Shown in pieces: positions 9,001-12,000 of a stretch of DNA of 50,105 nucleotides (the stretch's first letter is position 1; each line of letters begins with the position of its first letter). Made by a program: the position numbers. Source of the DNA: a virus. Lineage: Duplodnaviria > Heunggongvirae > Uroviricota > Caudoviricetes. Where the stretch lies: IMG/VR virus record IMGVR_UViG_2630968414_000007; one strand, given 5' to 3'.

Positions 9001-12000
9001 TGATCATCACTGATTCTTACCGTGATGGTGCCACTGGCATAAGTGCTCGTGCGGGGGAAAGACTTGCTGACCGTTTTGACAATATCGCCTTCAATCTGGT
9101 TGGCTGACAGTTTCCCCTTAATCTGACAGTTCTCATTAATCGTGACGTTGTTGAGCGTCCCTGAGTTCGCATTCACACTGCCACTGATATCCGCATTTTT
9201 CGCCGTCAGTCGCCCGTCCGGCGTCAGGGAAAATGCCGGAGGATTGCCGGATGACGTGATGCTCACCGCAAACAGTCGTTTCAGGAACACGTCGTTCATG
9301 AACAGCTGATTCCCCTGCGCCACAAATAACGGCGTGCTGTTGCCGCTCTCCGGATTTATCATCGCGATACGGTCAGCCAGCAGCAGTATGTTGCTCAGTG
9401 GCTGGCCATCAGTATCCTCAATCCCTGCACCAATCCCGGCCACATAGGGAATGCCGTCTTTCGTTTTTTGAACCTTCAGCATGTACAGCGCAGCCAGGTC
9501 ATCATTTGTGTCCTTCTGCACGCGCTGTATCTGCTGTATGGTGGCGCTCTGGTTCTCCAGTGTTTTACTGACCGTCTGTGTGATTTCATTGCGGGTTTCG
9601 GTGATGCTGGTCTTCATCTCCGCCATCTCATCCGCAAGCTGGCTGTTGTCTATCAGCTCCCACAGCCCCTGAGCCAGATGCAGTTTTCCTATTTTTTCCC
9701 GAAACAGCCCCAGATACCCTTCTGCATCATTGCTGGCCCGGCCACTGGCTTCCACAAAAGCAGATTTCCCCACCAGGTTGACGCTGCGCACATAAAACCA
9801 GAAATCCTTCCCGGGCTTAATGTGCGGGCCGGATACACTCCACTGACTGCCGGTCCCCAGATAACGGGCAGAGGTTTCCACCTGAGATGTGTCTGCGATT
9901 TTTGTCTCCGAAAACCAGAACTCAAACTGCACCGTCGGGTCATAAATGGTCAGTTTCGGGACTGCCGTTATCTGAAAATACCCCGGCGTCAGTTCAACAC
10001 CGGCAGGCGCTGCCGGTGCGTTAATCCGGAACGTGGTGGTGGCGGGTTCGCCCTGCTGGCCATAGCTGTTAATCGCCCTGACCGTCAGGGTGTATTCCCC
10101 GAGAGGCAGGCCACTGAAACGGTGCTCTGTATCCGCAGTGATGGCGGTGGTCACCAGACGTCTGTCTTCTCCGCTTCCGCTGGTCAGGCGCAGACTGAAG
10201 CGCACACCCTTCACCACCCGCGGCGTGTCCCATTTCGCCTGTGCCAGATACTGGCCGTCAGCCGCGCTCACCTCCACCGTCAGGTGCTGCACTGCCGGCG
10301 GGATGACGCTGTTCAGGGTGCCGCTCTGGTCGCCGTCAAAGTGCGCCCCGTTATCCACAATGGCTTCTTTTTCCGGTACGTGCTGCACTGCCGTGATGGC
10401 AAAGGTACCGTCCGTGTTTTCCCGGATGGAAACACAGCGGAACAGGCGACGACGCAGTGACGGCAGGGAGAGTCCCCACACACCGTATGTCTCCACGCCA
10501 TCCGGCAGGGTACTGACCTGTATCCGGTCCGGCGCGGGGTGTGCGGTGATGTCCACATTCACCGGCTTACCGCTGCCGTTAATCAGGTTCACCGTGGCGG
10601 CACCTGTCTCCGGCAGGGTCACCTCACGGTCCAGTGTCAGGTGCTGCACTGCCGGCGGGATGACGCTGTTCAGGGTGCCGCTCTGGTCGCCGTCAAAGTG
10701 CGCCCCGTTATCCACAATGGCTTCTTTTTCCGGTACGTGCTGCACTGCCGTGATGGCAAAGGTACCGTCCGTGTTTTCCCGGATGGAAACACAGCGGAAC
10801 AGGCGACGACGCAGTGACGGCAGGGAGAGTCCCCACACACCGTATGTCTCCACGCCATCCGGCAGGGTACTGACCTGTATCCGGTCCGGCGCGGGGTGTG
10901 CGGTGATGTCCACATTCACCGGCTTACCGCTGCCGTTAATCAGGTTCACCGTGGCGGCACCTGTCTCCGGCAGGGTCACCTCACGGTCCAGTGTCAGGGT
11001 GCGGCTGGCGGCATCGATGGACAGGACACGTCCGCCGGTCATGGTCCCGGCATAGTCGTTATCACAGATTTCAATAATGTCACCGGGTGTGTGACGCAGC
11101 CCCTGTGACCCGAGCGTGAAATCCACCGTCTGCGTTTCCAGCAGTCCGGTCTTTATCACCCACAGCCCGGCACGGTGGGCCTGACCGCGACTGGTGCAAC
11201 CGAACGCATCCATCTTCAGCAGGTTGCGTCCGTAGCGCAGTATGGCTTCCGGGTCTTCCACCAGTTCCGTGGAGGTCTGCCAGCCGTTATGCGGGTCGGT
11301 GTAATTCACCTCCACCGCCGTGTGGCGGTCCTTCAGGGCGCTGAAGCTGTAGCGAAACCCCACGCCGTTATCATCCACCACCACATCGCAGTTGGTGTAC
11401 GGCCACACCACATCCGACGGGCGGTCCTGAACGAACGTCAGCGTCTGGCCGTTCCATACCGGCATACAGCGCATCGCCGAGCAGAAATCACTGAGAACGT
11501 CCCACGCCTTACGCTGTTGTGACAGGTACGCATTGAAAGTCATCCGCGGCTCTGTGCCCCCGAAACCATCCGGGACCGTCTGGTCGCAGTACTGCGCAAT
11601 GGCATACAGCGCCCATTTGTCCACGTCTGCCGCCCCCAGACGTTTTCCCATGCCGTAGCGCGGGTGAGTCAGCATGTCCCACAGGCACCAGGCCGGGTTG
11701 TTGCTGTATGCCGGTTTCAGGCTGCCGTCCCAGATGCCGCTGTACGTGCGTTTTTCCGGGTCATAGTTTGACGGTACCTGGATGATGCGACCGCGGATAT
11801 GGTAGTTCACCGTCATCTGCTGACCGCCAAACTGCTCCGCATCCACCTGCAGCCCCACAATCGCCGTGTTCGGGTAGCACTGTTTCACATCGATGATTTC
11901 GGTGTATGACGACCAGAGCGTCTTATTCTGCAGCTGGTCCGAGGTGCTGTCCGCTGTCTCCCGGACCATCCGGATGTTAAAGGGCCGCTCAGGCAGATTA

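Follow-up and report, generated by a model that had tools for sequence, protein, structure and literature searches.

The J gene and its tandem array

The window analysed here, i.e. the whole 50,105-nucleotide stretch of the viral record IMGVR_UViG_2630968414_000007, carries on its minus strand a J gene (tip attachment/host specificity; positions 8673..12509) whose intact reading frame starts with GTG and encodes a protein of 1278 residues (WP_046671434.1); 8673-12509 is also the only long open reading frame that spans the tandem array described below. RefSeq annotation and the Pfam families of the neighbouring genes place J in a tail cluster, after the tape measure, M, L, K and I genes and before lom and a side fibre, a context shared with lambda, where the order tape measure, M, L, K, I, J, lom, stf-like fibre is likewise found. 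All six J Pfam families score above their gathering scores and follow the canonical order along the 1278 residues (FNIII-A_GpJ, Phage-tail_3, Ig_J, Ig_J_second, Phage_Tail_Tip, Ig_GpJ_C).

A phmmer comparison with lambda gpJ (8IYK, 1132 aa) returned an E-value of 0 and 1701 bits, with three collinear pieces that cover lambda residues 1-1132. Lambda residues 1-556 align with residues 1-556 of the window protein, so that lambda residue numbers are valid directly up to the duplication, while lambda residues 543-836 align with 662-954; as the offset of this alignment is exactly 119, lambda gpJ is single-copy, bearing out the expectation in the original prediction that lambda J has one copy of the segment. 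The window protein and the solved lambda protein (PDB 8IYK/8K35/8XCG) thus have in common the Pfam order, a high identity over the whole length and the numbering up to residue 556, but differ in that residues ~507-625 occur once in lambda (1132 aa) and twice here (1278 aa). On the strength of this sequence identity to the solved gpJ, the fold of J can be regarded as settled, and the duplicated J is a member of the family with a variant allele, the presence of two copies being no ground for its exclusion.

At window positions 10279-10998, Tandem Repeats Finder detects a repeat of period 357 with 2.0 copies, 100% matches and 0 indels, and the 357-bp spacing of the J array is what the repeat finder gives as well. 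In a base-by-base scan every nucleotide from 10279 to 10641 is identical, without exception, to the one located 357 positions further on, which amounts to a self-match of 363 nt, that is, one 357-bp unit plus a 6-bp microhomology. The 357-bp unit is placed by blastn, with 100% identity, at 10279-10635 and 10636-10992. On the minus strand, the repeat finders, the scan and blastn accordingly delimit a gene-proximal (upstream) copy at 10636..10992, comprising approximately codons 507-625, and a gene-distal (downstream) copy at 10279..10635, comprising approximately codons 626-744; Tandem Repeats Finder and the exact scan agree that the two lie head-to-tail with no spacer between them. The hexamer at the junction, GTCAGG on the plus strand and CCTGAC on the coding strand, where it forms Leu-Thr codons, both bounds and joins the copies: the exact scan locates this microhomology on the minus strand at 10993..10998, and again at 10636-10641, the novel junction, and at 10279-10284. 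The 714-bp array can be written in seven equivalent registers, 10281-10994 being one of them.

The unit consists of 3 x 119 codons, and codon 506 begins at position 10994; residues 505/507-623/625 are encoded and then encoded again at +119, with a junction peptide that is seamless and contains no new residue. An exact repeat of 357 bp cannot have come about by chance. The exact in-frame 357-bp tandem duplication that had been predicted within J is thereby confirmed by the Tandem Repeats Finder result (100% matches, 0 indels), the exact scan and the intact reading frame, and so are its two identical, back-to-back copies of 119 codons, between which divergence is zero; the proposal that they lie upstream of the receptor-binding end of J is supported too. 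Other repeats in the window are an in-frame 162-bp repeat of 3.7 copies (97% identical) in the portal gene and the collagen repeats of the side-fibre gene.

The carrier strain, the single-copy allele and its relatives

The J region is 100% identical to the closed chromosome (NZ_CP035366.1) of the Escherichia coli O157:H7 strain C1-057, an stx-negative feedlot-cattle isolate, and likewise to the 2015 draft of the same strain (LAZO01000001.1), with no differences over 9837 nt. In the closed genome, which contains approximately nine J paralogues, the gene lies in a lambdoid prophage of ~51 kb that is bounded by ompW fragments and adjoins yciE-trp; its tail genes stand in the usual order, with lom, a side fibre with collagen repeats and effector/IS cargo after them. 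As a whole, the window lacks collinearity with the closed chromosome of C1-057: positions 1 to ~26000 correspond in reverse, with two differences, to NZ_CP035366.1 ~1809866-1783800, positions 26000-29200 diverge from it, and positions 29500-50105 correspond in forward orientation to 2176490-2197094, a stretch that forms the early region of another prophage, next to ynfA/speG. The portal and capsid genes of these two C1-057 prophages are identical and lie in opposite orientations. Since the two halves of the window map apart and in opposite orientations, draft and closed assembly differ by a prophage-to-prophage inversion of ~390 kb, a kind of rearrangement known in O157:H7 (PMC8991562), and both arrangements are found in other closed genomes.

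When one 357-bp unit is removed in silico, a gene of 3480 nt results whose entire length matches, at 100.0% identity, the gpJ gene of at least 26 other complete O157:H7 genomes. The sibling strain 21B8 carries this single-copy gene (WP_024748464.1, 1159 aa) at the same ompW/yciE/trp locus, where 21B8 and C1-057 share identical K, I, Lom and fibre proteins, and the stretch from J to the trp operon differs between the two strains by one mismatch and one gap in 16 kb. WP_024748464.1 and the window J, less one unit, are therefore alike in nucleotide sequence (100% identity), in locus and in neighbouring proteins, and the duplication is the sole difference in the gene. In protein length, the window J (1278 aa) exceeds both the ancestral allele (1159 aa) and lambda gpJ (1132 aa). 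Within a collection of 15 billion proteins the exact 1159-aa single-copy protein is present on 41 contigs and the exact 1278-aa protein on two, both from C1-057.

A 100-nt probe across the junction matches as one piece in a single genome (that of C1-057) out of 5426 complete E. coli genomes; in its other listed E. coli matches the probe falls into two pieces that lie ~380 bp apart and in reversed order, the arrangement that a single-copy gene gives. Among the matches listed in 50,697 phage records none was in one piece, all of them being two-piece matches, and the 42-mer of the junction had no exact match in metagenome contigs, IMG/VR viral contigs or GTDB-representative contigs. There is hence no recurrence or copy-number variation across lineages, the count standing at one of the 5426 genomes and at zero in the phage, viral, metagenome and GTDB-representative sets. 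Short-read assemblies may collapse an exact tandem repeat of 357 bp in a multi-copy gene, or break there, so that draft genomes are uninformative and the true frequency may be somewhat higher.

A comparison of J lengths in related prophages, which the original prediction had put forward as a check, yields single-copy genes throughout the family. When searched against 1.84 billion representative proteins, the 119-residue unit found 221 relatives, and 148 of the best 150 contained one matched stretch; when 43 diverse J-like proteins (33-93% identity) were aligned, all 43 filled one copy and left ~119 columns empty. The only two-stretch hits among the best 150, P0019 and P0164, were considered as an established two-copy J architecture and rejected, being fragmentary and chimeric with diverged copies, and P0027 and P0031 were likewise dismissed as precedents because they are tape-measure::J fusions; these four proteins are probably short-read misassemblies or products of decayed prophages and not a family. 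A word-indexed protein search with the duplicated region gave only close E. coli J fragments, each covering no more than 68% of the query per local alignment. As far as sequence comparison can tell, the duplication is not an evolved architecture of the J family.

Structural content of the duplicated unit

The unit corresponds approximately to residues 507-625 of lambda gpJ, i.e. to most of the OB/β-sandwich, the last HDIV strands, the linker between hub and FNIII domains and the first strand of FNIII-1. In lambda gpJ a β-sandwich (483-569) is inserted between HDIV strands β24 (477-482) and β25 (570-578) (PMC10721106), and HDIV is followed by a linker, consisting of a loop and a short helix, that leads to FNIII-1 (PMC10721106; PMC11101478). 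The inserted β-sandwich is the one that Ge and Wang named the OB domain, and the linker repositions the FNIII strings as the tip opens after LamB binding (PMC11101478).

We modelled residues 1-950 of the duplicated J with AlphaFold2 from an alignment of 44 sequences (mean pLDDT 81.6); as this alignment covers the first copy only, the model is biased and is silent on which of the two copies the hub uses. The model reproduces the published layout of lambda gpJ. It has OB strands at residues 492-499, 504-507, 520-524, 530-540, 543-546 and 558-562, the last HDIV strands at 569-578 and 584-590, the linker helix at 594-600, a low-confidence loop at 608-621 and the first strand of FNIII-1 at 741-750, and the breakpoints coincide with model strands at 504-507 and 622-625/741-750. 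The upstream copy, which is the only one that the alignment covers, completes in the model the native OB domain and the HDIV strands with high confidence. Within the downstream copy, residues 626-680 form partial OB-like strands with a pLDDT of 64-75 and residues 684-734, the orphan HDIV strands and the linker, fall below 50, and the tail of this copy supplies the FNIII-1 first strand (741-750).

The unit thus starts within an OB strand and ends within strand A of FNIII-1, with breakpoints that ignore domain borders. It takes in roughly three quarters of the OB domain, both of the final HDIV strands, the entire linker and a short piece of FNIII-1. J does not acquire a further complete domain; what it gains, at the passage from hub to FNIII cone, is ~119 residues made up of a truncated OB piece that lacks the first OB strands, two orphan HDIV strands and a second linker. 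Modular accretion of an Ig/FN3 domain was accordingly rejected as a description of the locus, the unit not being one complete, autonomously folding domain and the pLDDT at 684-734 being below 50. The duplication sits in the baseplate hub and not in the fibre shaft, and for this reason we also discarded the description of it as a longer tail fibre. The same mapping, to HDIV-OB, the linker and the first strand of FNIII-1 and to neither the shaft nor a whole domain, speaks against the earlier suggestion that the duplication lengthens the tail tip.

Origin and consequences of the duplication

Identity of at least 6 nt at an offset of 357 occurs at only 3 of the 3117 positions of the single-copy gene (chance ~0.001), and the microhomology at the junction is thus unlikely to be coincidental. 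The ancestral single-copy J would have presented two CCTGAC hexamers 357 bp apart, between which replication slippage, template switching or a RecA-independent illegitimate exchange could have duplicated the interval; as 357 equals 3 x 119, the reading frame was kept. The position of the hexamers 357 bp apart, the seamless junction and the lack of divergence between copies form the signature expected of slippage, template switching or illegitimate exchange, and it is from the junction that we infer a mechanism of the slippage type. No convincing hairpins or longer repeats were found at the breakpoints, where there are only trivial imperfect inverted repeats of 11-19 nt. Because homologous recombination easily removes a perfect tandem repeat of 357 bp, the survival of this one is a further sign that the event was recent. 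Tandem duplications with short junctions that form independently of RecA are a known kind of mutation in enterobacteria, and the present case resembles these microhomology-mediated duplications in its identical head-to-tail copies, its short direct repeat at the endpoints and its seamless junction; nothing sets it apart from them except that it is in frame and located inside a structural phage gene. We therefore hold it to be highly probable that the lambdoid prophage J gene of C1-057 underwent a real, very recent, strain-private and microhomology-mediated tandem duplication, which has no effect on the lysogen and probably none, or a harmful one, on the virion.

The original prediction left the choice between a recent slipped or unequal recombination event and an artefact of assembly, and of these the former agrees with a junction on 6 bp of microhomology and with copies that have not diverged, whereas the latter is unlikely given that two differing PacBio assemblies both carry the duplication. 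On an artefactual reading C1-057 would truly be single-copy, a false expansion having been made by PacBio RSII sequencing or by HGAP correction or consensus, and there are reasons to take this seriously: the duplication is limited to one strain, one laboratory produced both assemblies, on one platform and possibly from shared reads, the ~9 J paralogues complicate read correction and assembly, the ~390-kb inversion between prophages means that draft and closed sequence contain at least one assembly-level difference, and chimeric or duplicated J fragments are present in public short-read assemblies. However, the known artefacts of long-read sequencing occur at contig ends or as inverted hairpins, and the array is neither, being direct and located mid-contig. 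The draft was assembled with HGAP2/Quiver from PacBio RSII continuous long reads of 3-20 kb at more than 100x coverage (PMC4777751), reads which would span a 714-bp array many times, and the genome was closed with further RSII sequencing (PMC8046923). Despite the ~390-kb rearrangement elsewhere, these two structurally different assemblies agree base for base (100% identity) over the 9.8 kb around J. Moreover, copies and flanks represent one allele, 100% identical to the gene of the sibling strains, which argues against a chimera of paralogues, and the rare 6-bp microhomology at the junction is a biological signature that an overlap assembler has no cause to produce. The small share of probability that we still assign to an artefact reflects the fact that the two data sets may overlap.

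Those paralogues could be thought to have a more direct role, namely as partners in a homologous unequal exchange, mediated by RecA or Red/RecET, between J genes of different prophages; each genome holds many of them, the prophages encode exonuclease/recombination genes, and recombination between prophages evidently occurs in this lineage. We nonetheless regard such an exchange as very improbable, since recombination between different prophages would rearrange the chromosome rather than build a local tandem repeat, copies and flanks are all of the same allele with no SNPs derived from paralogues, and the endpoints share only 6 bp, far less than homologous recombination needs and well short of the more than 30 bp of ancestral homology that would speak for it.

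If the recent microhomology-mediated duplication is real, the question of its consequence arises. A resting prophage does not need J, and the change would thus be neutral for the lysogen; for virions we would most probably expect the duplicated J to have no effect or a damaging one. Damage could come from misfolding of the surplus HDIV strands and the shortened OB piece, from their rivalry with the native copy for the HDIV slot, or from core strands left exposed. In the best case the connection between hub and FNIII domains would grow from ~30 to ~150 residues and be tolerated as a long floppy hinge, which is conceivable because what keeps the cone closed is the FNIII trimer together with the helix bundle beneath it, rather than the linker (PMC11101478).

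An adaptive reading would go further, holding that the longer hinge or an extra surface module has been selected and changes how the tip is triggered, how the phage adsorbs or which hosts it infects. The duplication keeps the frame, leaves an open reading frame of 1278 residues intact and introduces no new residues at its junction, and the neighbouring head and tail genes are free of pseudogene flags in the annotation of the closed genome; but one in three random duplications will be in frame in any case, and selection is not needed for that outcome. The duplicated linker is, in addition, the very element that repositions the FNIII strings on opening of the lambda tip (PMC11101478), and by analogy with the tail-fibre duplications that appear in response to host resistance one may point to in-frame cases that were repeatedly selected during coevolution of phage EfV12-phi1, where they arose in independent replicates, reached several copies, lay within the fibre and changed infectivity (PMC6365445). 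Selected in-frame tandem duplications are also described for T4 gene 37 (Tetart et al. 1996, as cited in PMC6365445). The likeness lies in the in-frame tandem duplication of a host-recognition gene, upstream of its receptor-binding part; the difference is that here there is one strain, with two copies, in the hub and linker, and with domains cut. The assignment of the present duplication to this adaptive tail-fibre type was therefore rejected on grounds of location (HDIV-OB of the hub, linker and FNIII-1 strand) and of recurrence.

Against selection there also stand the zero divergence between copies, the lack of recurrence in 5426 genomes and of any two-copy lineage in the J family, breakpoints that in the model cut β-strands and leave a partial OB domain with orphan HDIV core strands, the position of the change in the hub, far from the receptor-binding domain, and the fact that no obvious selection acts on J in a lysogen. 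We accordingly see little prospect that the duplication is adaptive, and it seems comparably doubtful that the duplicated J works in tails with its 119 residues acting as a longer hinge or as an extra surface module between hub and FNIII cone. If it did work, the opening of the tail on receptor binding might be altered or a weak adhesion to surfaces added, a first step of domain accretion in tail tips would have been caught in the act, and tail-tip hubs would be shown to be able to accept insertions that are not domains.

The duplicated J of C1-057 is an ordinary strain-specific variant, i.e. a known kind of mutation in a well-known gene and not a new design of tail. Its wider biological weight is small, as it adds one more tandem duplication of short homology, in a gene that is dispensable to the lysogen; it does, on the other hand, mark strain C1-057, and the prevalence of such variants is possibly underestimated, given that short-read assemblies may collapse such a repeat or break at it. 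It also offers a natural insertion of 119 residues at the hinge between hub and FNIII domains, in a numbering common to lambda gpJ, which could be transferred in order to probe how much slack this hinge allows.

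Arrangement of the prophage in the draft and closed assemblies

Sequence comparison shows that collinearity is lost between the window and NZ_CP035366.1, the closed chromosome of the same strain, E. coli O157:H7 C1-057. The left segment (window 1-29200, with a breakpoint zone at about 26000-29200) matches the closed record in reverse, at about 1809866-1783800, and the right segment (window 29500-50105) matches it in the forward direction at 2176490-2197094, where the early genes of another lambdoid prophage, adjoining ynfA/speG, are located. The portal and capsid genes are identical between both prophages and lie in inverted orientation, so that the draft (LAZO01000001.1) and the closed assembly are a ~390-kb prophage-to-prophage inversion apart. 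This inversion is either a genuine rearrangement or else a misassembly; both arrangements occur among other closed O157:H7 genomes, that of SS NE 1040-1 being window-like and that of M7638 resembling closed C1-057.

On a finer scale, two single differences from the closed genome are found at about 17000 and about 21000 of the window, the remainder of the 26 kb being identical; errors in the consensus of one or other PacBio assembly may account for them.

Cargo and side tail fibre

Downstream of the tail fibre, window 1-6000 consists of low-GC cargo, its GC content (34.9-42.6% in 2-kb windows) contrasting with the 52-62% of the adjoining tail region (6-28 kb). According to the RefSeq annotation of the matching region, the cargo comprises a DUF1076 gene with a frameshift, together with three DUF4765 coding regions. 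Of these three, that closest to the tail fibre is an incomplete pseudogene, and an IS3-family element separates this fragment from the other two. The side tail-fibre protein itself (ORF 6629-7948, minus strand) carries phage_tail_N, Collagen and Phage_fiber_C domains, and a 45-bp x 2 repeat (6907-6997) falls within its collagen triple-helix (Gly-X-Y) region, where such a repeat is ordinary in fibres of this kind.

Repeats in J and portal proteins

Four unusual proteins from public assemblies, outside the window, were among the matches to the 119-aa J unit: P0019 and P0164 are J fragments with diverged internal duplications, while P0027 and P0031 are tape-measure::J fusions. All four probably reflect either chimeric assembly of short reads across the numerous J paralogues or the decay of prophages.

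The portal ORF (21300-23930, minus strand; 876 aa) contains a tandem repeat at 21811-22403, with 3.7 copies of a 162-bp unit (54 codons if in frame) at 97% identity; it falls within the protein's C-terminal half, past the Pfam Phage_portal domain (residues 54-382). Because the same 593-bp array is found in the sibling O157:H7 strain 21B8, the portal array is older and shared, in contrast to the tandem duplication in the tail-tip gene J.
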